IMG/VR virus record: IMGVR_UViG_2703718852_000003
Coordinates: 1 to 27,458 of that record
Length of the DNA: 27,458 nucleotides
DNA from: a virus
Taxonomy: Duplodnaviria > Heunggongvirae > Uroviricota > Caudoviricetes
Direction: 5' to 3' (one strand)
Shown: piece after piece, positions 1 to 27,458 of the stretch
Layout: every line of letters begins with the position of its first letter
How positions within the stretch are numbered: position 1 is the first letter of the stretch
Position numbers and translations under genes: made by a program
Notes under the pieces: model-generated
What the model saw: the letters and a program-made list of their open reading frames with translations, nothing else
What the model was told of the DNA's origin: nothing
Database searches by the model: none

Positions 1-319
1 TTGCCTCCCCCCCGTTGATGGGTAAAATAGCCGCAATTTTTCGTTTTCAACAAGCGCGGCGCGATGCCGCTTACTCAAGAAGAAAGAATTATGACGTTGT
101 CTCCTTATTTGCAAGAGGTGGCGAAGCGCCGCACTTTTGCCATTATTTCTCACCCCAATAATTAAGCCCAATTTAAAGCTCTTTTATTCTTTCAAAATCC
201 TTTCAGTTAATTGAGGTTGAGTCATATAACTCATTTAAATACATTTGGTTATGTGGCTTCTTTAATTGAAAATTCTTTCATGTAGCTTTAAATCGATCAG
301 GTTGCTTTCATCAAAAATC

Positions 320-10438: not shown

Positions 10439-11248
10439 ATGAATAATCTGATGGTCATTGATGGTATTGAAGTTCATCGTGATGCTTATGGGCGTTACAG
10501 CCTGAACGATCTGCATCGCGCAGCAGTAGCATCTGGTGCAAATGCCAGAACCAAGGAGCCAGGAAAGTTTCTTTCCAGCCAACAAACTGTTGAGCTTGTT
10601 CATGAATTGACCAACACCCAGAATTTGGGTGTTGACCCGGTGAGTGTGATTCATGGGGGAAATGAACGGGGAACGTATGTCTGCAAGGAACTGGTGTATG
10701 CCTATGCAATGTGGATCAGCCCGTCATTCCATCTGAAGGTGATCCGTACTTTCGACATGGTAACCAGCGCACCGGAAAAATTATCCGGACAGGCTGCTGA
10801 CAAGATGCAGGCTGGTGTGATTCTGCTGGACTTTATGCGCCGGGAATTAAACCTGTCTAACTCTTCAGTGCTTGGTGCCTGTCAGAAACTCCAGGAGGCT
10901 GTTGGCTTACCGAATCTGGCACCGCGCTATGCCATTGATGCTCCTGCTGACGCGCCTGATGGCTCAAGCCGCCCCACGCTGTCGCTGAGTGCACTGCTGA
11001 AACAGTATGGTATCCGCCTGACGGCTAATCAGGCATATCACCAGATGGCGAAGCTGGGGATCGTTGAACAACGCGAACGATACAGCCGTACCGCGATTAA
11101 CAACATCAAAAAATTCTGGTCGCTGACAGCGAAAGGCTGCATGTTCGGCAAGAACATCACCAGTCCCGCAAATCCGCGCGAGACGCAGCCGCATTTCTTC
11201 GAATCCCGATTCCCTGAGCTGTTAAAGCTGCTCGATACCGTTCATTGA
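10439..11248 (+). CDS. KilA-N domain protein (anti-repressor-like)
   Basis: N-terminal KilA-N pattern (IDGIEVHRDAYGRYSLNDLHRAAVASG); strong AGGAG ribosome-binding site. Confidence 0.7.
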   Translation: MNNLMVIDGIEVHRDAYGRYSLNDLHRAAVASGANARTKEPGKFLSSQQTVELVHELTNTQNLGVDPVSVIHGGNERGTYVCKELVYAYAMWISPSFHLKVIRTFDMVTSAPEKLSGQAADKMQAGVILLDFMRRELNLSNSSVLGACQKLQEAVGLPNLAPRYAIDAPADAPDGSSRPTLSLSALLKQYGIRLTANQAYHQMAKLGIVEQRERYSRTAINNIKKFWSLTAKGCMFGKNITSPANPRETQPHFFESRFPELLKLLDTVH

Positions 11249-12695: not shown

Positions 12696-13736
12696 GTGAA
12701 CATTCAAGCAGTAGACATTTTTTGTGGCGCAGGGGGCTTAACTTTTGGGCTAAAAAAAGCCGGGATTGAAGTTTCTCATGGCATTGATATTGATGAGTCC
12801 TGCCGTTTCGCTATTGAGAGCAATAATCCCTTAACGAAGTTCATTAACCAGTCAGTTACTGAACTGCAATCCAGCGATGTGTCTGCTATGTTCAAGGAAG
12901 GAAATATTAGATTACTTGCAGGCTGTGCCCCTTGCCAACCGTTTTCCAAGTATCGTAATCCAAATAGCAGAAAAGATGATACAAAGTGGCGTCTTTTATC
13001 TGAGTTTCAGAGGATTGTAAGTGATGTCATGCCAGAGCTTGTGACTATGGAAAATGTTCCTCAACTTAGAAATCATAAGGTTTTTGAAGAGTTTGTTAGT
13101 GTATTAAAGACTCTTGGGTATCATCTGTGGTACGACGTTGTAAAATGTTCCGAGTATGGCTTGCCTCAAAATAGACGTAGATTAATTCTAATTGGGTCCA
13201 TATTGGGGCCAATCAGCCTTGATCAAAAAAAAGTAAGCCGTAAAGTTACAGTAAAGGATGCTATTGGTCAGTTGCCAAAAATAGGTGCAGGGGAGAAACT
13301 CGAAAGTGATCCATTGCATCGTTCGCCTAAATTAAGGGATATTAACCTTAAACGAATCTTGCACTCTTTACCAGGTGGTACGTGGGATGATTGGCCTGAA
13401 GAAATTAGAGCGGATTGCCATAAAAAGCATTCAGGTGCTACCTATAAAAGTGTTTATGGACGGATGGTTTGGGACGATACTAGTCCTACAATAACTACCC
13501 AATGTTATGGATATGGTAATGGGCGATTCGGACATCCTGAGCAAAATAGAGCAATAACTTTGCGTGAAGCTGCTATTTTACAATCTTTTCCTATGGATTA
13601 TAAATTTATTGGAAAAAATACGCCTTTTTCATTCCAAAAGTTAGGAACGATGATTGGTAATGCTGTTCCCCCTATAATTGGCCAAGTAATAGGGAGAACG
13701 TTTGTTAGGCATGTTGAGGGGATAAATATCCGTTAG
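12696..13736 (+). CDS. DNA (cytosine-5)-methyltransferase
   Basis: Motif I FCGAGG, motif IV catalytic PCQPFS, motif VI ENV, motif VIII QNRRR; GTG start with GGAGA ribosome-binding site; AT-rich. Confidence 0.9.
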   Translation: MNIQAVDIFCGAGGLTFGLKKAGIEVSHGIDIDESCRFAIESNNPLTKFINQSVTELQSSDVSAMFKEGNIRLLAGCAPCQPFSKYRNPNSRKDDTKWRLLSEFQRIVSDVMPELVTMENVPQLRNHKVFEEFVSVLKTLGYHLWYDVVKCSEYGLPQNRRRLILIGSILGPISLDQKKVSRKVTVKDAIGQLPKIGAGEKLESDPLHRSPKLRDINLKRILHSLPGGTWDDWPEEIRADCHKKHSGATYKSVYGRMVWDDTSPTITTQCYGYGNGRFGHPEQNRAITLREAAILQSFPMDYKFIGKNTPFSFQKLGTMIGNAVPPIIGQVIGRTFVRHVEGINIR

Positions 13737-14394
13737 AGATAATATAATCTTCAGTTGAGTTTATTAATAAACGAAGATATAGATCAACTCTCTCTGCTCT
13801 AGACTTAACTTCTTCTAAGGGGTCAATTTGCCCCTTTTTAGAGAAGCTAGTACTTCCATGCGCGAGTTCGTTTCTGATATCCTTAAGCAAGTCTAAGTCA
13901 ATACCATTTCTACATTCAGGTGAGTTTGCGATAGTTATTCCGTAAGCCTGCGTTATTTTGTGTAATACAGGCTTGCAAACATTACCATTGAATTCTTTAC
14001 GAATATTCAATGAGGCTGAAATTATTCTTTTGGAAATGTCAGTGCCTATCTTTTTATAAAGGGATTGCCCTGTTTCATTATCTGAAACAATTCTATGTAA
14101 TATATTTACTTGAAGCTTCTCCCTGAGTGATGCGTAATTCACCTCATTATCTTGTAAATGATCATAAATTGACTCGATGCAACCTCTGGCAGTATTTTCA
14201 ACTTGATTATATAGCATCATATGAACGGATGATTTTAAAATATTTACCCTTAGGATATTAGATTCTATTTCATCTTGATGCGCTTGCGGATCTAACTGCT
14301 GAGTATGAATCTCTATAGATGATGCAAGAGAAAGCAGTTCCATAATGTCTCTTGCTCTTTCTTCATATTCATCTCGTAAATCAATTAGACTCAT
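13705..14394 (-). CDS. HEPN-like protein (R-x4-HG motif), second gene of the DUF262 operon
   Basis: C-terminal IRNELAHG fits the HEPN R-x4-6-H motif; start 3 nt after the DUF262 stop; 3' end overlaps the convergent methyltransferase by 32 bp. Family assignment by eye only. Confidence 0.5.
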   Translation of the reverse strand: MSLIDLRDEYEERARDIMELLSLASSIEIHTQQLDPQAHQDEIESNILRVNILKSSVHMMLYNQVENTARGCIESIYDHLQDNEVNYASLREKLQVNILHRIVSDNETGQSLYKKIGTDISKRIISASLNIRKEFNGNVCKPVLHKITQAYGITIANSPECRNGIDLDLLKDIRNELAHGSTSFSKKGQIDPLEEVKSRAERVDLYLRLLINSTEDYIISNGYLSPQHA

Positions 14395-14396
14395 TT

Positions 14397-15557
14397 TTAA
14401 ATCCCTAACAACTTATTTTTAACGTAAAAGATTCTGTTTTTTAGCTGGCTGGTATTGTTTGCACTATCAGCAGTAACAAGTGTTTCAAATTCCTCTTCAA
14501 ATAGCCATTCACCTACAGGTACGGCTGGACTCTGGAGTTGTGGGTTAGTTTTTAATGCAAGTGCAGTTCCCACGGCAATGGCTTCGTATCTGGCTCGTGG
14601 GGTGGTTTTACTTGTTGCGGTCTTTTTAAAGCCAATAGGGAAATGGGTAGCAACAAAAGCAAGCATCATTTCAAAATCATGTTTAAAATTATCAACATCT
14701 TGTTGAGTAGTCACAGCTGCTGCTTGTTCATTTAAATAATTATCAATAAAGGGACGGACAAATCCCTTATAGTTTTCTAAATCATTTAAATATGCAAAAA
14801 ATCTCAAAACTAACTCACGATGATCGCCATTCGACCGTTTCCGGTCTGATAATGGAGCTAGTTGGGAAAAAAGTGAGTTTGTTGAGCATGGGGTCACAAC
14901 ATCTTTATAGAACATTGAGGTAGCAGCATCTGAGCCATGCCTCACTTCCATCGCTTCTAATCTTTTAACACCTGAGTTGATCCTTTCAAATAAATCTCTT
15001 CTATGTTGTTCCTCAACATCACCTTTCAACTCAATAAATCTTAGTGAAGCTCTTAAAAATCTTCTTTGGCGGCTAGCTAAAAGATCTGAAAATTTGAAAC
15101 CTTCTAAACTTTTAAGCTCTTTCAAATCCTTTAACTCAAATTGATCGTTCCAAAAATAATAAATAGAGCGTATCCGTTGTGAACCATCAATGATTTCTAC
15201 CCTACCATCTAATTCAGGGTCTTCATTAAATACATCAGCAATGTAAAGGTAAGGTATTGGAAAGTCTAATAGAATACTTTCTATAAAGCGAGAGGCTGTT
15301 TTTGTATCCCACTTGTAATCACGTTGATAATCTGGAATAAAAAGCTCGTTTTTGTCATTTTCAATATTATCACCATACTTTTGAATAATGACTTCAACGG
15401 TCCACTCACGTACATTGTATCCAATGTTTCTCTGAGCGAGTCTGATTTCATTGTCAGCGGAAGCGGTTAAAGCTGCAATTTCAGCCTTTTTTCTGTTCTT
15501 AGCGTGTTCATCTTGTATCTGAGCAAGCTCTTCTTTGAGTTCTTTGAGTGTAGTCAT
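14397..15557 (-). CDS. DUF262 (GmrS / ParB-like NTPase) domain protein
   Basis: Hallmark motifs FIPDYQRDYKWD and EIIDGSQR (DGQQR box); AAGGAA ribosome-binding site; AT-rich. Confidence 0.8.
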   Translation of the reverse strand: MTTLKELKEELAQIQDEHAKNRKKAEIAALTASADNEIRLAQRNIGYNVREWTVEVIIQKYGDNIENDKNELFIPDYQRDYKWDTKTASRFIESILLDFPIPYLYIADVFNEDPELDGRVEIIDGSQRIRSIYYFWNDQFELKDLKELKSLEGFKFSDLLASRQRRFLRASLRFIELKGDVEEQHRRDLFERINSGVKRLEAMEVRHGSDAATSMFYKDVVTPCSTNSLFSQLAPLSDRKRSNGDHRELVLRFFAYLNDLENYKGFVRPFIDNYLNEQAAAVTTQQDVDNFKHDFEMMLAFVATHFPIGFKKTATSKTTPRARYEAIAVGTALALKTNPQLQSPAVPVGEWLFEEEFETLVTADSANNTSQLKNRIFYVKNKLLGI

Positions 15558-16148: not shown

Positions 16149-17201
16149 ATGAAAAATACTGTAAAAATAAACAGTGTTGATTTAATCAACGCTGATTGCC
16201 TGCATTTTATTCAGTCCCTGCCTGATGATTCCATTGACCTGATTGTTACCGATCCGCCTTACTTCAAGGTGAAACCCAACGGTTGGGACAATCAGTGGAA
16301 AGGGGACGAAGATTACCTTAAGTGGCTGGACCACTGTCTGGCCCAGTTCTGGCGGGTGTTGAAACCTGCCGGAAGCCTTTACCTGTTCTGTGGGCATCGC
16401 CTGGCATCTGATATTGAGATCATGATGCGTGAACGTTTCAACGTGCTTAACCATATCATCTGGGCGAAGCCGTCCGGACGTTGGAATGGGTGTAATAAAG
16501 AAAGTCTGCGCGCATATTTTCCTGCCACAGAGCGCGTTCTGTTTGCTGAACATTACCAGGGGCCATATCGCGGCAAAAGTGACGGCTATGCGGCAAAAGA
16601 AAGGGAACTCAAACAGCACATAATGGCACCGCTGATATCGTATTTCAGGGATGCTCGTGCCGAACTGGGTATAACGGCAAAACAAATTGCCGAAGCCACA
16701 GGTAAGAAAAATATGGTTTCCCACTGGTTTGGTGCCAGTCAGTGGCAGTTGCCGAATGAGGCTGACTATCGGAAGTTACAGGCACTGTTTTCCCGTATAG
16801 CGGCAGAGAAGTTTCAGGAACAACAACTGGAACAACCACACCACCAGCTGGTGGCATCTTATGATTCACTGAATCGCAAATATTCTGAATTGCTGGATGA
16901 GTTTAAATCTCTCCGGCGCTATTTCTCCGTATCAGTCTCCGTGCCTTATACCGATGTCTGGATGCATAAACCCGTTCAGTTCTACCCGGGTAAACATCCG
17001 TGTGAGAAACCGGCGGATATGCTCAGGCAAATAATCAATGCCAGTAGTCGACCTGGTGATCTGGTTGCTGATTTTTTTATGGGATCCGGTTCCACAATAA
17101 AAGCAGCAATGGCGCTGGGGCGTCGGGCCTTAGGTGTTGAGCTTGAGTCAGAGCGGTTTAACCAGACAGTGAAAGAGATAAACGAGCTGGTGGGGAAATA
17201 A
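16149..17201 (+). CDS. DNA amino-methyltransferase (N6-adenine or N4-cytosine, beta class)
   Basis: Motif IV DPPY near the N-terminus and motif I FFMGSGST near the C-terminus. Confidence 0.8.
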
Positions 17202-17268
17202 TCTGGTGGCCACGTCAGGTGGCCTTTTTATTTCCATTACACAGCACCCGCATCTGCGAGGTGGGGTT

Positions 17269-19291: not shown

Positions 19292-19621
19292 ATGGATCGA
19301 GAGTTAAAAAATCTGACGCTGAATATCAGTCAACTGGCGGCATTGTCAGGTGTACATCGCCAGACTGCTGCGGCAAGGCTGCAAAATCTACCCGTTGCAG
19401 GGGGGCATGAAAGCAACCTCAAGCTTTATCGGGTGGTTGATATTGTGTCGGCATTTCTGGCATTACCACCGCCGGTTGCAGAAGGCGAAATGGACGCGCA
19501 TGAGCGCAAAGCCTGGTATCAGTCTGAACGTGAGCGTCTTAAGTTTGAACAGGAAACGGCACAACTCATTCCGGCCAGTGATGTCAGACGGGAGTTTGCC
19601 ATCTGGGCAAAATCCGGATGA
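19292..19621 (+). pseudogene. Terminase small subunit (Nu1-like), truncated or frame-disrupted
   Basis: N-terminal helix-turn-helix (LNISQLAALSGVHRQTAAARLQNL); ORF stops at 109 aa; a charged tail continues in another frame to 19769; no large terminase or portal gene follows. Confidence 0.55.
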
Positions 19622-19782
19622 TGTCAAACGTCGGCGCAAGGCCGAAATTGATGAAAACCGCAAGCTGGATCTGGTATTTGATACCGATCCGGCCAGTGAT
19701 AAAGGAGGCAGCAGTGCCGCAACGAAACGACAGGAGCCGCAGCACACCGACGACCAGTCCGAAGAATAATTCCTGGTTCAGG

Positions 19783-21945
19783 ATGCAGGCTGGTCACCAG
19801 AGTGACGCGGATATTTATATTTATGACGAGATTGGTTTCTGGGGTGTTACAGCGAAGCAGTTTATCAGTGATCTGAATGCACTGGGCGATATCACCCACA
19901 TTAATCTCCATATTAATTCACCGGGTGGCGATGTCTTTGAAGGCATCGCCATTTTTAATGCGCTGAAAACACATGGTGCGTCCATTACCGTTTATGTCGA
20001 CGGTGTGGCGGCGTCAATGGCGTCGGTCATTGCGATGGTGGGAAACCCGGTCATTATGCCGGAAAACACCTTCATGATGATTCATAAACCATTTGGCTTT
20101 ACGGGCGGTGATGCGGAGGACATGCGCACCTATGCCGACCTGCTCGATAAAGTTGAGGCGGTTCTGTTACCCGCTTATGCACAGAAAACCGGGAAAACCA
20201 CCGATGAAATTGCTGCCATGCTGGCGGATGAGACCTGGATGTCCGGTGCCGAATGTCTGGCACATGGATTTGCTGATCAGGTAACGCCAGCCGTTAAGGC
20301 AATGGCATGTATTCAGTCAAAACGTACAGAGGAATTTAAAAAGATGCCGGAATCCATTCGAAACATGATTACTCCGCCACGCAACAGTGCTCCACGCGTA
20401 CAGGATAATGAACCTGAAGCCTCCCGGACGCCAGTGCAGGCAGCAGCACCCGTGGTGGATGAAAACAGCATCCGTGCGCAGGTACTGGCAGAGCAAAAAG
20501 CGCGTGTAAACGGTATTAATGATCTGTTTGCCATGTTTGGCGGGCGTTATCAGACGCTGCAGGCTCAGTGTCTTGCCGATCCTGAATGTTCGCTGGAGCA
20601 GGCCCGCGAAAAGCTGTTGAACGAGATGGGGCGCGAGTCCACGCCATCCAATAAAAATACCCCGGCTCATATTTATGCCGGTAACGGTAATTTTGTGGGG
20701 GACGGGATCCGCCAGGCGCTGATGGCGCGTGCCGGATTTGAAAAAACCGAACGTGATAATGTCTACAACGGGATGACCCTGCGTGAATATGCCCGTATGT
20801 CACTGACTGAACGGGGTATTGGGGTTTCCAGTTATAACCCGATGCAGATGGTCGGTGCGGCGTTCACACACAGTACGTCTGACTTCGGTAATATTCTGCT
20901 GGATGTTGCGAACAAAGCCATTCTGCAGGGCTGGGAAGATGCCCCTGAAACCTATGAACAGTGGACGCGGAAAGGTCAGTTGTCTGATTTTAAAATTGCC
21001 CATCGTGTGGGTATGGGGGGCTTCAGTGCTCTGCGTCAGGTGCGTGAAGGGGCGGAATATAAATACGTCACCACCGGAGATAAACAGGCCACTATTGCAC
21101 TGGCGACCTATGGCGAGCTGTTCAGTATCACCCGTCAGGCCATTATCAATGATGATCTGAATATGCTGACCGATGTCCCGATGAAACTGGGCCGTGCGGC
21201 GAAATCCACTATTGCCGATCTGGTTTATGCCATTCTGACGTCTAACCCGAAAATCTCCACAGATAATGTAAGTCTGTTCGATAAAGCGAAACATGCAAAC
21301 GTACTGGAGAGCGCTGCAATGGACGTGGCACCGGGCATGGCACGCATCTGCCTTTACGGGGATTTACAACGATTTGGCCGCCGCATCGACCTTCGAGTGA
21401 AAACGGGGTCCGAAGCCATCCGGGCGCTGGCCATGCAGAACCCGGCGTTTCGTCAGAAACTGAGTGACGGCTGGTACCAGGTACGCATTGCCGGGCGTGA
21501 TGCAGGTGAAACCGAATTGTCTGCCCGTCTTAATGAGCCGCTGGCAAATGGTGCCGTGATCCACATCGTGCCGCGTCTGGCGGGAGCTAAAAGTGGAGGT
21601 GTGTTTCAGGTGGTGCTGGGGGCGGCGCTGATTGCGGTGGCATGGTGGAACCCTGTGGGCTGGCTGGGTGCCGCGGCTGTATCGGGCATGTATGCGGCAG
21701 GGGCCAGTATGATCCTGGGCGGAGTGGCGCAGATGCTGGCACCGAAAGCCAGGACGCCCACGGCAGCAAGTACAGATAACGGCAAACAGAACACCTATTT
21801 CTCCTCACTGGATAACATGGTTGCCCAGGGCAATGTTCTGCCGGTTCTGTACGGTGAAATGCGCGTGGGGTCTCGCGTGGTTTCTCAGGAGATCAGCACG
21901 GCAGACGAAGGGGACGGTGGTCAGGTTGTGGTGATTGGTCGCTGA
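19783..21945 (+). CDS. Chimeric ORF: ClpP-like prohead protease plus HK97-type major capsid protein (C-terminally truncated) fused in frame to a lambda gpI-like tail assembly protein
   Basis: Protease core HINSPGGDVFEGIAIFNALK ... ASMASVIAMVG; capsid-like middle; from about 21336 MARICLYGDLQRFGRRIDL ... NTYFSSLDNMVAQGNVLPVLYGEMRVGSRVVSQEISTADEGDGGQVVVIGR matches remembered lambda gpI. Confidence 0.65.
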   Translation: MQAGHQSDADIYIYDEIGFWGVTAKQFISDLNALGDITHINLHINSPGGDVFEGIAIFNALKTHGASITVYVDGVAASMASVIAMVGNPVIMPENTFMMIHKPFGFTGGDAEDMRTYADLLDKVEAVLLPAYAQKTGKTTDEIAAMLADETWMSGAECLAHGFADQVTPAVKAMACIQSKRTEEFKKMPESIRNMITPPRNSAPRVQDNEPEASRTPVQAAAPVVDENSIRAQVLAEQKARVNGINDLFAMFGGRYQTLQAQCLADPECSLEQAREKLLNEMGRESTPSNKNTPAHIYAGNGNFVGDGIRQALMARAGFEKTERDNVYNGMTLREYARMSLTERGIGVSSYNPMQMVGAAFTHSTSDFGNILLDVANKAILQGWEDAPETYEQWTRKGQLSDFKIAHRVGMGGFSALRQVREGAEYKYVTTGDKQATIALATYGELFSITRQAIINDDLNMLTDVPMKLGRAAKSTIADLVYAILTSNPKISTDNVSLFDKAKHANVLESAAMDVAPGMARICLYGDLQRFGRRIDLRVKTGSEAIRALAMQNPAFRQKLSDGWYQVRIAGRDAGETELSARLNEPLANGAVIHIVPRLAGAKSGGVFQVVLGAALIAVAWWNPVGWLGAAAVSGMYAAGASMILGGVAQMLAPKARTPTAASTDNGKQNTYFSSLDNMVAQGNVLPVLYGEMRVGSRVVSQEISTADEGDGGQVVVIGR

Positions 21946-21963
21946 TGCAAAATGTTTTATGTG

Positions 21964-21990
21964 AAACCGCCTGCGGGCGGTTTTGTCATT
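21964..21990 (+). terminator. Terminator-like hairpin between the gpI-like region and J
   Basis: AACCGCC-TGCG-GGCGGTT stem-loop followed by a T-rich run. Confidence 0.35.
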
Positions 21991-22005
21991 TATGGAGCGT
22001 GAGGA

Positions 22006-23877
22006 ATGGGTAAAGGCAGCAGTAAGGGGCATACCCCGCGCGAAGCGAAGGACAACCTGAAGTCCACGCAGCTGCTGAGTGTGATCGATGCCATCAGCGA
22101 AGGGCCGGTTGAAGGTCCGGTGGATGGATTAAAAAGCGTGCTGCTGAACAGTACGCCGGTGCTGGACAGTGATGGGAATACCAACATCGCCGGTGTCACG
22201 GTGGTGTTCCGGGCCGGTGAGCAGGAGCAGACTCCGCCGGAGGGATTTGAATCCTCCGGCTCCGAGACGGTGTTGGGTACGGAAGTGAAATACGACACGC
22301 CGATCACCCGGACCATCACGTCGGCAAACATTGACCGTCTGCGTTTTACTTTCGGCGTGCAGGCACTGGTGGAAACCACCTCAAAGGGGGACAGGAATCC
22401 ATCGGAAGTCCGCCTGCTGGTTCAGATACAACGTAACGGTGGCTGGGTGACGGAAAAAGACATCACCATTAAGGGTAAAACCACTTCACAGTATCTGGCC
22501 TCGGTGGTGGTGGATAACCTGCCGCCGCGCCCGTTTAATATCCGGATGCGCAGGATGACGCCGGACAGCACCACAGACCAGCTGCAGAACAAAACGCTCT
22601 GGTCGTCATACACCGAAATTATCGATGTGAAACAGTGCTACCCGAACACGGCACTGGTCGGCGTGCAGGTGGACTCGGAGCAGTTCGGCAGCCAGCAGGT
22701 GAGCCGTAATTATCATCTGCGCGGGCGTATTCTGCAGGTGCCGTCGAATTATAACCCGCAGACGCGGCAATACAGCGGTATCTGGGACGGAACGTTTAAA
22801 CCGGCATACAGCAACAACCCGGCCTGGTGTCTGTGGGATATGCTGACCCATCCGCGCTACGGCATGGGGAAACGTCTTGGTGCGGTGGATGTGGATAAAT
22901 GGGCGCTGTATCTTATCGGCCAGTACTGCGACCAGTCAGTGCCGGACGGCTTTGGCGGCACGGAGCCGCGCATCACCTGTAATGCCTGGCTGACCACACA
23001 GCGTAAGGCGTGGGATGTGCTCAGCGATTTCTGCTCGGCGATGCGCTGTATGCCGGTATGGAACGGGCAGACGCTGACGTTCGTGCAGGACCGACCGTCG
23101 GATAAGGTGTGGACCTATAACCGCAGTAATGTGGTGATGCCGGATGATGGCGCGCCGTTCCGCTACAGTTTCAGCGCCCTGAAAGACCGCCATAATGCCG
23201 TTGAGGTGAACTGGATTGACCCGGATAACGGCTGGGAGACGGCGACAGAGCTTGTGGAGGACACGCAGGCCATTCTCCGTTACGGTCGTAACGTCACGAA
23301 GATGGATGCCTTTGGCTGTACCAGCCGGGGGCAGGCACACCGCGCCGGGCTGTGGCTGATTAAAACGGAGCTGCTGGAGACGCAGACCGTGGACTTCAGC
23401 GTGGGTGCCGAAGGGCTTCGCCATGTACCGGGCGATGTCATTGAAATCTGCGATGATGACTATGCCGGTATCAGCACCGGCGGGCGCGTGCTGGCGGTGA
23501 ACAGCCAGACCCGGACGCTGACGCTCGACCGTGAAATCACGCTGCCATCTTCCGGTACCACGCTGATAAGCCTGGTTGACGGGCAGGGGAGTCCGGTCAG
23601 CGTGGAGGTCCAGTCCGTCACCGACGGCGTGAAGGTGAAAGTGAGCCGTGTTCCTGACGGCGTTGCCGGATACAGCGTATGGGGGCTGAAGCTGCCGACG
23701 CTGCGCCAGCGCCTGTTCCGCTGCGTGAGTATCCGTGAGAACGATGACGGCACGTATGCCATCACCGCCGTGCAGCATGTAACTACGGCTCCCCTTACGG
23801 AAACATTGACTTTATCGAGATCTCGGCGCGCGGTCTGCCTTCTTTGCTTAGTGCGGATAATGTTTCTCGTCATCTGA
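22006..23877 (+). pseudogene. J: Tail tip host-specificity protein J, N-terminal roughly 590 aa only
   Basis: Near-identity to remembered lambda J from MGKGSSKGHTPREAKDNLKSTQLL through ITAVQHV, then unrelated sequence and a stop after about 30 codons; full J is about 1130 aa. Confidence 0.8.
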
Positions 23878-26408
23878 GTATACGCCGCTTAGGGTCAACC
23901 GGGCTGACCGATAACAACCAGATGCGTTACGGCCTGGTTAAAGGTGATGGCTTTATTGAGGTTTGGGCCTTCCAGTGCGCATTTATCAACGGCGCAAAGG
24001 TTGCGGTACTGGCGCAGACGGCACGCACGGAATTATACATTCCAGACGGATTTGTTAAGCAAACCGCCGCGCCTTCTGGATATATTGAAGGCAACGTTGT
24101 AAGGATTTACGACCAGGTAAACAAGCCGACTAAAGCAGATTTGGGTCTTTCTAATGCTATGCTTACAGGCGCTTTCGGTCTTGGCGGTAGCGGGATATCA
24201 ACAAACGGCAAGATGAGCGATGTAGAGATCTTAAAAGCTCTGCGTGACAAAGGTGGTCATTTCTGGCGCGGTGATAAGCCGACCGGAAGCACGGCGACCA
24301 TTTATAGCCACGGTTCTGGTATATTCTCGCGGTGCGGCGATACGTGGTCAGCGATCAATATCGACTACTCAACCGCGAAGATTAAGATCTATGCCGGCAA
24401 CGATGCCCGGCTTAACAACGGGACTTTTAGCGTCAATGAGCTATACGGCTCGGCAAACAAGCCGTCGAAATCGGATGTTGGACTTGGCAACGTAACGAAC
24501 GATGCGCAGGTAAAAAAAACCGGCGATACAATGACCGGTGACTTGACAATCAAAAAAGGTACACCGTCAGTCTTCCTGCGGGCAGACAGTGGAGTCACCG
24601 CTTTGCGGTTTTATACTGGCGATAACACAGAGCGCGGCATAATCTATGCTGGTCCTAACACTGATTCGCTTGGCGAAGTTCGCATCAGGGCAAAGACAGC
24701 AGGGGGGACATCAGGAGGGGATCTTGTTGTTCGTCACGACGGGAGGGTTGAAGTCCGTGATCTCACAGTAGCGTATAAAATTAAAAGCAGAACGATTGAG
24801 ATTGCAAATACCGACACTGACTCATCGGCAACTACGCTCAGCATCTATGGAGTACAGCACACGCCGTTGGTTTTAACGCGTTCTGGTTCTTCTGAAAATG
24901 TGTCCATTGGGTTTAAGTTAGACAACATGAACCCAAAGTATCTTGGAATTGATACTAATGGGGATCTGGCTTTTGGTGAGAGTCCTGATCAGAAACAAAA
25001 CAGCAAATTGATCACGCAAGCGAAACTCGACAAGGGATTAACGATTGGTGGTCAACTGGCTTTCAAAGGTACGACAGCGTTTTCAGCCGTTGCTACGTTC
25101 AGTGCCGGGATAGCAGGAGCCATCGAGCCGGAAAACATTGACGGCCAGACGGTTAATCTTAACAACCTGACCATCATCAAGTCAGATGCCGGGGCAGTTA
25201 AATACTATATTTGTCCATCCTCTGCAGGTGGTGCAAATATCACCAACAAGCCTGACGGCGTAACAGGTAACTTTTTGCTCCGTGTTGAATCGACTCGTAA
25301 GGTTAGGGATTCAGATTATGCGAACATGCAAACGCTGATTAACAGCGACACAAAACGTATATACGTTCGCTTTGTTGTTAATGGAAACTGGACAGCGTGG
25401 AGTCAGGTTGTTGTTTCCGGATGGAATCAGGATGTAACCGTCAGGTCGTTAACCTCGACGACTCCATCAAAATTAGGTGGCGGGCGGATTGATGTGCTTG
25501 GAAGTACGTCAGATTATGGCAGCATGAATTGTACCGTTCGTGGTGTTGATAGCACTGGAACCAATTCGGCGTGGTCGGTAGGCACATCAGAAAGCACAGG
25601 CAAAAAGTTGTTCCTGAAAAACCACAGAAGCAGCGCTCAAGTGCTGTTAAATGGCGATGATGGAGCGGTTCAACTACTAAGTGGCACTGTTAACGGTGCT
25701 ACAGCGCAGGCGCTAACCATCAACAAAGATGAGGTTAACTCAACTGCCGATTTAGTAATTAGAAAACAAACAGGGACTGGCAATCGTTTTGCTTTACTTA
25801 ATTCAGGTAATTCAGAACTGCCAGTTAGCATCGCGGTCTGGGGGTCAAGTGATCGACAAAACGTTTTTGAGGTTGCAACGTCTGCTGCGTATCTGTTTTA
25901 TGCGCAAAGAACACCAGCAGGCCAGTTGTTTGATGTAAATGGCGCTATTAATTGCACAACGCTGAATCAGTCATCAGACCGCGACCTTAAAGACGATATT
26001 CGCGTTATCAGCGACGCGACGAAAGCAATCCGCAAAATGAACGGTTACACCTACACGCTCAAGGAAAACGGCCTGCCTTATGCTGGCGTTATTGCACAGG
26101 AAGTAATGGAGGCGATACCAGAAGCTGTGGGATCGTTTACTCATTATGGTGAAGAGTTGCAAGGTCCGACCGTTGACGGCAACAAGCTACGCGAAGAAAC
26201 GCGCTATCTTAATGTTGACTACGCCGCCGTGACGGGTTTACTTGTTCAGGTCGCCCGTGAAACAGATGATCGCGTTACCGCGCTGGAAGAGGAAAACACA
26301 ACGCTACGTCAAAATCTGGCAACAGCAGGCACCCGGATCAGCACTCTGGAAAATCAGGTAAGCGAACTGGTTGCACTTGTCCGGCAGTTAACAGGAAGCG
26401 AACATTGA
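23844..26408 (+). CDS. Side tail fibre protein with C-terminal intramolecular chaperone (peptidase S74-like) domain
   Basis: Fibre repeats (NKPSKSDVGLGNVTNDAQVKKTGDTMTGDLTI); C-terminal SDRDLKDDI ... coiled-coil segment typical of the auto-cleaving chaperone; true N-terminus uncertain because the frame is open upstream. Confidence 0.7.
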   Translation: MLSADNVSRHLSIRRLGSTGLTDNNQMRYGLVKGDGFIEVWAFQCAFINGAKVAVLAQTARTELYIPDGFVKQTAAPSGYIEGNVVRIYDQVNKPTKADLGLSNAMLTGAFGLGGSGISTNGKMSDVEILKALRDKGGHFWRGDKPTGSTATIYSHGSGIFSRCGDTWSAINIDYSTAKIKIYAGNDARLNNGTFSVNELYGSANKPSKSDVGLGNVTNDAQVKKTGDTMTGDLTIKKGTPSVFLRADSGVTALRFYTGDNTERGIIYAGPNTDSLGEVRIRAKTAGGTSGGDLVVRHDGRVEVRDLTVAYKIKSRTIEIANTDTDSSATTLSIYGVQHTPLVLTRSGSSENVSIGFKLDNMNPKYLGIDTNGDLAFGESPDQKQNSKLITQAKLDKGLTIGGQLAFKGTTAFSAVATFSAGIAGAIEPENIDGQTVNLNNLTIIKSDAGAVKYYICPSSAGGANITNKPDGVTGNFLLRVESTRKVRDSDYANMQTLINSDTKRIYVRFVVNGNWTAWSQVVVSGWNQDVTVRSLTSTTPSKLGGGRIDVLGSTSDYGSMNCTVRGVDSTGTNSAWSVGTSESTGKKLFLKNHRSSAQVLLNGDDGAVQLLSGTVNGATAQALTINKDEVNSTADLVIRKQTGTGNRFALLNSGNSELPVSIAVWGSSDRQNVFEVATSAAYLFYAQRTPAGQLFDVNGAINCTTLNQSSDRDLKDDIRVISDATKAIRKMNGYTYTLKENGLPYAGVIAQEVMEAIPEAVGSFTHYGEELQGPTVDGNKLREETRYLNVDYAAVTGLLVQVARETDDRVTALEEENTTLRQNLATAGTRISTLENQVSELVALVRQLTGSEH

Positions 26409-26591
26409 TATCCTTCAAGCTCTGAAGGAGGCTGTTCCCGGTACGTTCAGACTGTTGTTGAGCTGGAAATCGCAACGGAGGAAGAAACCTTGTTGCTGGA
26501 AGCCTGGAAAAAGTATCGGGTGTTGCTGAACCGTGTTGATACATCAACTGCACCTGATATTGAGTGGCCTACAGTACCTGTTATGGAATAA
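26409..26591 (+). pseudogene. Tail fibre assembly protein (Tfa) C-terminal remnant, no start codon
   Basis: In-frame after the fibre stop; encodes ...[30 protein letters not shown], the conserved Tfa C-terminus. Confidence 0.6.
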
Positions 26592-26648
26592 TCGTTACTG
26601 CTGTAGCCATAATAACGTCATATACAAGAGCTTGCTGGATTACGAAGT

Positions 26649-26850
26649 ATGCGCGCTGATTTTGAAGATAAAATCAGTGGTACAAAGTCCGAAAGGCCTG
26701 GGCTGAAAAAACTACTCAGAATATTATCGGCAGGTGACACACTGATTGTCTGAAAGCTGGACTGACTGGGGGCGTTTTTTCTTCCATGTTATGGGGCTCA
26801 GGCCGAAATGGAACGTGAACTGACTGTTAAGAGAACAATAGTCGGGTTTT
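26649..26850 (+). pseudogene. Serine DNA invertase (Pin/Hin/Gin family) remnant with N-terminal loss, internal deletion and two in-frame stops
   Basis: Translation MRADFEDKISGTKSERPGLKKLLRILSAGDTLIV*KLD*LGAFFLPCYGAQAEMERELTVKRTIVGF matches Pin segments FEDKLSGTRTDRPGLK ... DTLVVWKLDRLG and RFFFHVMGALAEMERELIIERT; catalytic Ser region missing. Confidence 0.6.
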
Positions 26851-27035
26851 GAGGCTGCGAGATTACATAGAGTTAATTGGTTGATTAATAGGGTATAGAG
26901 GTTATCCAACTATTCGTTACGACATATATTGTTGTTACCTACAAGTTATGAAAAATATATTATTTTATTGATTTTTTGTATGTACAGATTAATACTTAAT
27001 ACGCATCAATCTGCACATTTGCTTTTGTGAGAGAA

Positions 27036-27458
27036 TTATCGTTGTAAGAGTGATTTAATATTGTTGGCGACTACTTCAGGATTATTATCATAGACCATAT
27101 AATACTTATCACTAAGTAAAGGTAATGATAGGTTTACGACCTCCTCGTCTTCTTTTTTTAATAAGGTCAAAAGTTTTACGTCGCCACTCGATATTTCGCT
27201 GGCTAAAACTGCCCTTAATTCTTTTTGAGGCCATTCCTTATTGACTGAATTAGCAGATAAAATAGCGATGACATATTTTGATTTAACTAGTGCTGCATTT
27301 ATTTTCTCAATTAAGGAGTCGCCCCATTTTATCTCAACATGATCTATGAAGGCTGAAATTTTAAGTTTAGTTAACTCGTCATATATTGGAATTGCAATGC
27401 CTTTTTTGTCTTCGCTTGCATGGCATATAAAAACATCAAAGTTTTCTGTTTCTTTCAT
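27036..27458 (-). CDS. TIR-domain protein (standalone, about 140 aa)
   Basis: N-terminal FDVFICHASEDK and conserved SANSVNKEWPQKEL block (S-x-x-S-x-W-x-x-E-L with putative catalytic Glu); AT-rich; start codon at the window edge, so upstream context is not visible. Confidence 0.75.
   Translation of the reverse strand: MKETENFDVFICHASEDKKGIAIPIYDELTKLKISAFIDHVEIKWGDSLIEKINAALVKSKYVIAILSANSVNKEWPQKELRAVLASEISSGDVKLLTLLKKEDEEVVNLSLPLLSDKYYMVYDNNPEVVANNIKSLLQR

Follow-up and report, generated by a model that had tools for sequence, protein, structure and literature searches.

A TIR-domain reading frame at the edge of a defective lambdoid prophage as the 3' end of a type XII retron (Retron-TIR) gene

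Introduction

The viral sequence considered here (Caudoviricetes, IMG/VR record IMGVR_UViG_2703718852_000003; all 27,458 nucleotides are referred to as the window) ends in a minus-strand open reading frame of 140 codons and a stop codon, whose first ATG coincides with the right end of the window. A preliminary description had read this frame as a standalone TIR-domain defence gene. The locus therefore raises the question whether the frame is a complete gene with a separate partner beyond the window, or the visible part of a larger one.

Several earlier reports bear on this question. Type XII retrons are defined as a reverse transcriptase (RT) fused to a C-terminal TIR_2 domain (Mestre et al. 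2020, PMC7736814). The same paper, with reference to Gao et al. 2020, ascribes anti-phage defence to Retron-TIR and states that this needs the RT-fused domain; it gives the structure of the type XII noncoding RNA (ncRNA) as 'nd' (PMC7736814). The Retron-TIR of S. dysenteriae NCTC2966 has been used in T5 plaque assays, plasmid-borne in the non-native host E. coli K-12 MG1655, and the phage protein Atd1 restored T5 plaquing against it about 10-fold (bioRxiv 10.1101/2022.06.09.495361). In Retron-Eco2 (Ec67) the TOPRIM domains are enclosed by msDNA in a trimeric cage, from which the phage nuclease DenB releases them, and for type XII the same source states that no structure or mechanism is published (PMC12916289). 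The literature searched for this work contained no description of the type XII activation mechanism.

Results

The reading frame at the window edge

The last 1059 nt of the window are matched in 79 complete E. coli genomes (at least 80% of the length), with an identity of 99.7-100% in the 20 full-length matches listed. In 19 of these 20 the frame belongs to a single gene for a protein of 534 aa, WP_000551400.1, whose RefSeq name is "TIR domain-containing anti-phage reverse transcriptase"; in the remaining match (H17) the RT-TIR gene is broken into two. Three of these records were inspected individually. Strain F5 (L001) and isolate AF44 (L002) are 100% identical to the window across the final 1059 nt, and in both genomes 394 further codons are open upstream of the window-edge ATG, giving WP_000551400.1. 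The ATG at 27456-27458, which had been taken for a start codon at the window boundary, is the internal Met395 of this protein, and the translation of the window equals residues 395-534 with no differences (compared with the C-terminus of L001 8637-10241, minus strand). The boundary ATG is listed as a start by the ORF tool because the sequence stops there. We note that the window ends at this internal Met, and we therefore infer the continuity of the frame in the source genome from near-identical genomes.

The profiles specific for the fusion also recognize the fragment. The 140 residues match the PADLOC model RT-TIR_XII at positions 340-477 of 478 (E = 3.1e-41) and the NCBIfam model Retron_TIR_antiphage at positions 334-464 of 464 (186.7 bits). 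With high confidence we conclude that the window ends within a type XII retron (Retron-TIR) gene, of which the visible 140 codons encode the C-terminal TIR effector domain. The earlier account was thus correct in that a frame of 140 codons with a stop exists, but these are the last 140 codons of a 534-aa gene, and the term standalone does not apply, as the frame runs on into an RT. The preliminary description had named as its refutation the finding that the frame is the end of a larger, unrelated ORF; a larger ORF is indeed found, against the standalone reading, although it encodes a TIR defence protein (RT-TIR) and not something unrelated.

The competing reading, a standalone ThsB-like TIR protein of 140 aa that starts at the boundary ATG and acts with a separate SIR2, SLOG or Macro effector beyond the window, seems barely credible to us. 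The TIR fold is real, the models for ThsB do match weakly (best PADLOC model ThsB1, 1.8e-16; NCBIfam Thoeris model ThcB4, 31.4 bits), and a weak GAAGG about 10 nt before the internal ATG, within codons 388-394, would make internal initiation conceivable. However, the 394 additional codons are open in DNA of 100% identity, the fusion models fit far better than the ThsB models (3.1e-41 versus 1.8e-16; 186.7 versus 31.4 bits), the best 120 homologues are all RT fusions, and in the alignment of homologues the sequences beyond the enteric clade do not conserve Met395. Extension of the sequence, proposed as a search for the partner, leads in L001 and L002 to a DinI-like gene and then to prfC, with no SIR2, SLOG or Macro gene past the RT-TIR gene, and no partner is kept in nine related loci.

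Table 1. Coordinates of the features of the locus (window positions unless marked L001; an arrow gives the direction of reading)
Feature	Position	Strand	Basis and remarks
attL core ATTATTTCTCACCC, end of the native prfC 5' fragment	142..155	+	14-mer recurs beyond the window, inside the functional prfC
Tail fibre assembly gene remnant (backbone)	26457..26591	+	annotation of identical DNA, L001 8058-8192
Frameshifted pin-type recombinase pseudogene, left border of the cargo interval	26622..26852	+	RefSeq, L001 8223-8453, L002 35751-35981
AT-rich spacer from the RT-TIR stop to the pin pseudogene, distal end of the retron cassette	26853..27035		sequence
RT-TIR 3' part, last 140 codons and stop, TIR effector domain	27036..27458	-	ORF; identity to L001 8637-10241 (-); Pfam, PADLOC and NCBIfam
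W-P-Q-K-E, putative NADase Glu and partner Trp	27219..27233	-	invariance in 37 homologues; AbTIR alignment
FDVFICHASEDK motif, N-terminal end of the TIR domain, fragment residues 7-18	27405..27440	-	family alignments; AbTIR match
RT-TIR ORF, 534 aa (542 aa from TTG 10265): retron RT, helical linker, TIR	L001 10241->8637	-	100%-identical E. coli DNA
msr-msd-type ncRNA, about 143 nt, closed by a 12-bp a1/a2 stem	L001 10434->10292	-	inverted repeat, conservation, covariation
Promoter-like site TTTACT-17-TATGAT, ending just before a1	L001 10471->10443	-	position; conserved TGnTAnnnT upstream of a1

The full-length RT-TIR protein

The protein of 534 aa combines two Pfam domains, RVT_1 (residues 97-298, 3e-19) and TIR_2 (residues 403-516, 3.9e-18). 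It reaches 670.5 bits with the NCBIfam equivalog NF042941 (Retron_TIR_antiphage), whose curated cut-off is 600, and 3e-187 with PADLOC RT-TIR_XII, a model described as 'single gene'. The hallmarks of the RT are invariant in alignments of 25 and 37 homologues, namely N147-A148-x-x-H151, D161, Y239-A240-D241-D242 and V296-T297-G298. With an RT that carries YADD, NAxxH and VTG, a TIR_2 domain fused C-terminally within one ORF and a score above the NF042941 cut-off, the gene in L001 is a member of type XII. The AlphaFold model of a 99%-identical representative (pLDDT 87) has its best PDB folds in retron Eco2/Ec67 (E = 4e-27) and in the RT of Ec86 (TM 0.8); sequence and structure searches of the PDB returned no structure of an RT-TIR protein.

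The true protein is probably slightly longer than annotated. A TTG 8 codons upstream of the annotated ATG is preceded by AGGAG at the right distance, and a start at this codon gives the N-terminus MSLHDKLL, which homologues share with an E. coli cluster member of 542 aa. Judged by these signals, translation would begin at the TTG and yield 542 aa.

The family is widespread. The 90% cluster of the 534-aa protein has 795 members, and the named members among those listed are from E. coli or Shigella. All of the best 120 homologues carry RVT_1 together with TIR, 116 of them have a size of 469-600 aa, and their hosts comprise Enterobacterales, Vibrio, Pseudoalteromonas, Aeromonas and beyond. A search of contigs with the family alignment, which drew on generic motifs of retron RTs, gave about 8 true RT-TIR loci among the 80 matches listed, all of them alphaproteobacterial with approximately 40% identity. 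A tblastn search of sequenced phages found no full RT-TIR gene, the matches being RT domains of other retrons. The system is already known, that is, catalogued, annotated in RefSeq and of an experimentally validated kind of defence, and the gene described here is an ordinary member of its family. The role in anti-phage defence, which had been proposed for the TIR gene, is taken from the literature on family members: the protein belongs to NF042941 and to PADLOC RT-TIR_XII, and the family is reported as anti-phage (PMC7736814).

The TIR domain and its putative catalytic site

The bacterial TIR signature of the fragment is confirmed by profile search, as had been suggested for the fold, with Pfam TIR_2 at E = 2.8e-19 (70.2 bits, cut-off 28) and Pfam TIR at E = 5.7e-12. 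Solved bacterial TIR domains match the fragment with E of about 1e-16, namely AbTIR (8g83/7uwg), the Brucella TcpB chain 4lqc, and 4lzp. The motif FDVFICHASEDK is present and lines up with YDLFISHASEDK of AbTIR; its residues F404, H407, A408, S409, E410 and K412 do not vary in the family. The second TIR block of the window product reads SANSVNKEWPQKEL; it had been given as S-x-x-S-x-W-x-x-E-L, and the block is indeed there, but its true spacing is S-x-x-S-x4-W-x3-E-L (S-A-N-S-V-N-K-E-W-P-Q-K-E-L). Within the TIR domain the residues F404, H407-E410, K412, G440-S442, S465, W470, P471 and E474 are invariant in the alignments of 25 and 37 homologues.

The hallmark of TIR NAD+ hydrolases, a TIR fold with a conserved Trp-x3-Glu, is present as W470-x3-E474. 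These two residues are W76 and E80 of the fragment, with the codon of E474 at window 27219-27221, and W-P-Q-K-E matches column for column W-T-N-Y-E of the chain 8g83, named 'NAD(+) hydrolase AbTIR'. The counterparts in AbTIR are presumably W204 and E208, which we take to be needed for catalysis. In structure the agreement is close as well: the TIR part of the AlphaFold model superimposes on AbTir 7uxu with an rmsd of 1.8 Å over 133 columns (TMt 0.89). We therefore regard E474 as the putative catalytic Glu of an NADase and W470 as its putative partner.

The same likeness raises the possibility that the TIR domain of this retron does not deplete NAD+ but makes a cyclic ADP-ribose isomer, which switches on an effector encoded elsewhere. 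Of the solved structures, AbTIR and the Brucella TcpB-type domains are nearest to it, and TIR domains of the AbTIR/TcpB type make 2'cADPR besides hydrolysing NAD+. We consider a signalling role unlikely, since the family counts as a single-gene system in PADLOC and NCBIfam, the P4-like, P2-like and lambdoid loci share no conserved neighbour, and the Retron-TIR of the T5 experiments was plasmid-borne in a non-native strain (bioRxiv 10.1101/2022.06.09.495361).

Assignments to other TIR-containing defence systems were also considered. For Thoeris, the Pfam family ThsB_TIR gives 13.3 bits, below the cut-off of 21.2; the TIR domain forms one protein with an RT, and the neighbours are the pin pseudogene, the DinI-like gene and prfC, with no ThsA among them. 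For a TIR effector of CBASS/Pycsar (CAP12/PCTIR), PF10137 gives 18.9 bits, below the cut-off of 24.7, and no cyclase gene is found nearby. The Thoeris- or CBASS-type assignment offered in the preliminary description is accordingly dropped.

A noncoding RNA upstream of the reverse transcriptase

The start of the RT-TIR gene is separated from the next gene by 357 nt. This spacer contains a perfect 10-nt inverted repeat, CGGCTCTGCC/GGCAGAGCCG, whose arms stand 116 nt apart, and within the spacer lies an ncRNA of the msr-msd type (Table 1), whose segment folds better than shuffled sequences (z = -3.2). The same ncRNA is found upstream of RT-TIR in Erwinia (two species), Salmonella, Edwardsiella, Providencia, Citrobacter, Yersinia and Serratia. 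An alignment and a covariance model were built from nine enterobacterial loci. The order of elements consists of a1 (GGCUCUGCC), an invariant UUAAAU, the hairpin GAGG-UUGUUUCG-CCUC, a variable region, the conserved UUGCGYAAAGUGAUUG, and a2. The variable central region is expected to be the msd.

The structure is borne by compensatory changes. RNAalifold predicts 25 pairs, of which 9 have compensatory changes, and 6 of the 12 bp of the a1/a2 stem covary. In a MAFFT alignment that is blind to structure, 96.9% of the cells are paired, compared with 36-46% in controls with slid partners; nine pairs of the ncRNA change on both sides, a number reached by none of 500 shuffles. The covariance model also matches upstream of the RT-TIR gene of Pseudoalteromonas (58 bits, E = 3e-13) with a fully compensated a1/a2 stem; this locus stands outside the model, and its RT-TIR protein is 46% identical. 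Against the window itself the model gives no match, as expected. Against the alphaproteobacterial RT-TIR loci it gives hairpin noise and weak matches just upstream of the RT genes, none of them significant; a1/a2-like repeats are present in these loci according to a plain inverted-repeat search. A search of L001 8400-11200 with Rfam gave a single sub-threshold match to the unrelated CRISPR-DR6 (E = 0.068), located within the RT-TIR ORF.

A promoter-like site ends just before a1. The number of sites in the promoter scan is about that of chance (11 found, 10.0 expected), and the promoter call is based on the position and on the conserved TGnTAnnnT upstream of a1. Promoter-like site, msr-msd with a1/a2 and RT follow each other on the same strand, which is the organisation of a retron.

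The junction following a1 differs from the common pattern, in that retrons mostly branch from a G that follows TTA (UUA-G) (bioRxiv 10.1101/2024.01.25.577267). In the nine enterobacterial ncRNAs a1 is followed by the invariant UUAAAU and in Pseudoalteromonas by AAAAU, and no invariant G occurs between a1 and the first hairpin in these ten sequences. The ncRNA of Ec67, whose sequence 14 E. coli genomes contain with 100% identity, aligns its branching G15 to an invariant A of the type XII ncRNA, albeit in a weak alignment (10.3 bits). As unpaired A residues stand at the usual place of the branching G, the type XII retrons of enterobacteria and Pseudoalteromonas may prime their msDNA from a non-guanosine 2'-OH or by another priming geometry, an idea that we put forward as speculative and rather doubtful. 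In alphaproteobacteria the a1-like repeat is followed directly by UAG in one locus (L009) and by UUCUAYG in the other loci; with UAG present after the repeat in L009, the missing G appears to be a trait of the clade and not of type XII.

Prophage context and cargo slot

The window begins right after yjjG and holds the native promoter of prfC and its first 21 codons (window 91-155). Beyond the window lies a functional prfC whose first codons are supplied by the phage. The repetition of ATTATTTCTCACCC in this gene marks the element as a lambdoid prophage inserted within the 5' end of prfC; the copies at both ends place the retron and the DinI-like gene inside the prophage, near attR. The prophage has several defects, namely a fused ORF of the prohead protease and capsid-tail I, a truncated J gene, the pin pseudogene and the remnant of the tail fibre assembly gene (tfa). 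The host element is a defective lambdoid prophage remnant in prfC, with the retron as cargo at its right, attR-proximal end.

The TIR frame had been described as following a pin remnant, and a pin-type pseudogene on the plus strand does adjoin it; an intact pin of 196 aa is found at the same site in another genome (L092). A terminator scan found no terminator-like hairpin in the AT-rich spacer between the two. The comparison with e14, which we take to carry mcrA as defence cargo after the tail-fibre/pin module at its attR end, holds for the position of defence cargo in general, but the element is a lambdoid remnant in prfC and not e14 at icd, and its cargo gene is a different one, which makes the mcrA comparison an analogy of position.

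The proposed cargo position is supported by the variability of the slot. Among the matches listed, other prophages are homologous to the left flank up to approximately window 26771, and what separates the tail fibre assembly gene from the DinI-like gene varies across E. coli. For example, both genes are directly adjacent in an O157 prophage, and another E. coli prophage has a SAM methyltransferase between them; elsewhere at the same prfC site the interval consists of an intact pin, ydfK and ynfT. Of 5426 complete genomes, 83 combine a pin remnant with the retron in this interval, so that about 1.5% of the complete E. coli genomes have the retron at this prfC prophage. The retron thus occupies the attR-proximal place past the tail-fibre/pin module where other prophages hold different cargo. 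In other Enterobacterales the RT-TIR gene is located directly after the primase of a P4-like satellite, in a P2-like prophage with gpA on one side and the portal gene on the other, or beside psu/delta of P4. The nine related RT-TIR loci in P4-like, P2-like and lambdoid elements have no conserved partner gene, as would be expected of a self-contained unit.

The degraded state of the surrounding prophage (pin pseudogene, tfa remnant, truncated J, protease/capsid-tail I fusion) could suggest that the retron too is decaying, broken upstream of the window in the source genome and with the TIR frame as a non-functional leftover. Such a break is on record, since p13P484A-1, a related circular element of 33.7 kb, has the gene split into proteins of 245 aa (RT) and 307 aa (TIR). 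The 140 codons of the window, however, are intact and identical to the intact allele, a single intact product is annotated in all but one of the 20 full-length matches listed (99.7-100% identical), and 218 contigs encode exactly this 534-aa sequence. We consider decay of the gene in the source genome very unlikely, and prefer an intact type XII retron that continues beyond the window.

Discussion

Proposed mechanism and implications

By analogy with Eco2 (Ec67), Ec86 and AbTIR-like TIR domains, the following mechanism can be proposed. The RT would copy the msd part of the ncRNA into msDNA, and the resulting particle of RT and msDNA/RNA would occlude the fused TIR domains or keep them from meeting. 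If a nuclease, a methylase, an ssDNA-binding protein or another activity of the phage altered or destroyed the msDNA, this would free the TIR domains, which might then associate and hydrolyse NAD+ via Glu474 (Glu80 of the fragment). The infected cell would stop growing and the phage would fail, corresponding to abortive infection. Gating by msDNA, release of the TIR domains, hydrolysis of NAD+ via E474 and abortive infection, taken together as one mechanism, appear to us moderately likely.

We note that an ORF starting exactly at the edge of a window should not be taken as a complete gene. Reading the edge ORF in this way made a catalogued one-gene retron look like an orphan TIR gene with a missing partner. 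The locus is a further example of prophages and satellites with retron defence cassettes in variable cargo slots.

Comparison with known systems

The locus invites comparison with four known systems. The first is Retron-TIR of type XII (NF042941, RT-TIR_XII; the system of Gao et al. 2020 from Shigella dysenteriae NCTC2966, classified by Mestre et al. 2020), with which it shares the single ORF, the N-terminal RT, the C-terminal TIR_2 domain and the upstream ncRNA. There is no difference in kind; the carrier in the present case is a lambdoid remnant in prfC.

The second is Retron-Eco2 (Ec67, type I-C RT-TOPRIM), which of all solved RTs comes nearest in sequence (9lm3, E = 3.9e-41) as well as in fold. 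Eco2 is likewise a one-protein fusion of RT and effector, and both retrons are located directly downstream of a DinI-like gene in a prophage. The ncRNAs have a common layout, consisting of a1, AUUUGU, a hairpin, a variable msd, UGCG..AAG..GUG and a2, and the Ec67 ncRNA aligns from end to end, though weakly (10.3 bits), with the type XII covariance model. The effectors differ, a TIR domain (putative NADase) in RT-TIR and a TOPRIM RNase in Eco2, and the trimeric msDNA cage with DenB as trigger has been shown for Eco2 only (PMC12916289).

The third comprises AbTIR and the Brucella TcpB-type proteins, whose TIR domains match with E of about 1e-16 and in which the motifs Trp-x3-Glu and (F/Y)D(V/L)FI(C/S)HASEDK align with those of RT-TIR. 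These proteins are secreted, virulence-associated or stand-alone and have other N-terminal regions, whereas the TIR domain of RT-TIR is a C-terminal module of an RT. The fourth is ThsB of Thoeris, with which RT-TIR has the TIR fold and the role in phage defence in common. Unlike ThsB, the TIR domain of RT-TIR is not standalone and has no ThsA partner, and its scores with ThsB profiles are much weaker than those with the models of the retron family to which it belongs.

Prophage architecture and cargo

The prophage is integrated inside the 5' end of prfC, and the functional copy of this gene starts with codons supplied by the phage (38607-38675 at L002, the corresponding locus of E. coli isolate AF44). 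The morphogenesis module at window 19292-26408 is collapsed. Compared with isolate AF44, window 19321-21820 constitutes 2.5 kb of additional sequence, whereas approximately 3.6 kb are missing from the window between J and the tail fibre. The prophage with the RT-TIR gene also carries a gene for a DNA cytosine methyltransferase, adjoined on the opposite strand by genes for a HEPN-like nuclease of the MAE_28990 family and for a DUF262 protein. Ahead of the lysis genes stands a second gene for a DNA methyltransferase. Both methyltransferase genes, the HEPN-like nuclease and the DUF262 protein are candidates for additional defence or anti-restriction cargo.

Coordinates of features of the prophage and of RT-TIR loci
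Feature	Location	Remarks
Native prfC 5' remnant at attL	window 91-155	first 21 codons
attL core	window 142-155	14 bp, ATTATTTCTCACCC
Methyltransferase, HEPN-like nuclease and DUF262 genes	window ~12696-15557 (L002 20696-23557) and ~16151-17203 (L002 24150-25202)	
DUF1441 ORF	within window 19292-26408	Nu1-like
775-aa ORF	within window 19292-26408	ClpP-like prohead protease and capsid fused to lambda tail protein I
J protein	within window 19292-26408	truncated, 623 aa
Tail fibre	within window 19292-26408	854 aa, with S74 chaperone domain
DinI-like gene	L001 (E. coli strain F5) 10599-10859	minus, same strand as retron, directly upstream of it
RT-TIR of other Enterobacterales	~3948-5635 in L083, L084, L087, L089, L090	

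Carriers of the RT-TIR retron

Elsewhere in Enterobacterales, the RT-TIR retron occupies slots of prophage-like elements (loci L083, L084, L086, L087, L088, L089 and L090). One type of slot follows a Phage_ASH-DUF5375-primase block in P4-like satellites, another, in a P2-like prophage, is flanked by gpA and the portal gene, and a third is located beside P4 psu/delta. We take these slots in P2 and P4 elements to be recognised defence hotspots. The full RT-TIR gene was found in no deposited phage genome of the phage collection searched. The prophage of the window is, furthermore, contained in a circular record of 33,754 bp (NZ_CP019281.1), deposited as 'plasmid' p13P484A-1, in which the DinI-like gene abuts the integrase gene. 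The record apparently represents the prophage after excision. Its RT-TIR is annotated as two ORFs, an RT protein of 245 aa and a TIR protein of 307 aa; an intact copy is also present on the chromosome of the same strain.

Expression and ncRNA of the retron

Upstream of the DinI-like gene of strain F5, two matches to the LexA-box consensus (CTGT-N8-ACAG), CTGTTTATTTATACAG and CTGTATGCAAACACAG, are found at L001 10875-10918 (minus). Read-through into the ncRNA and RT-TIR upon SOS induction is conceivable. The annotated ATG of RT-TIR has no Shine-Dalgarno sequence, whereas a TTG eight codons upstream sits 6 nt after AGGAG (L001 10263-10276). Initiation at this TTG results in the N-terminus MSLHDKLL, as in homologues, and the protein probably comprises 542 rather than 534 aa.

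The retron resembles Ec67 in its position: the Ec67 retron of a P2-like prophage likewise follows immediately on a DinI-like gene (L096 1975-2208). The ncRNA is located at L001 10292-10434 (minus). Within this clade of type XII, unpaired A residues follow its inverted-repeat arm a1 (columns 15-20 of ncRNA alignment A3), the sequence after a1 being UUAAAU, invariant in nine enterobacterial loci, and AAAAU in Pseudoalteromonas, whereas other retrons usually have UUA-G, with the branching guanosine, at this place.
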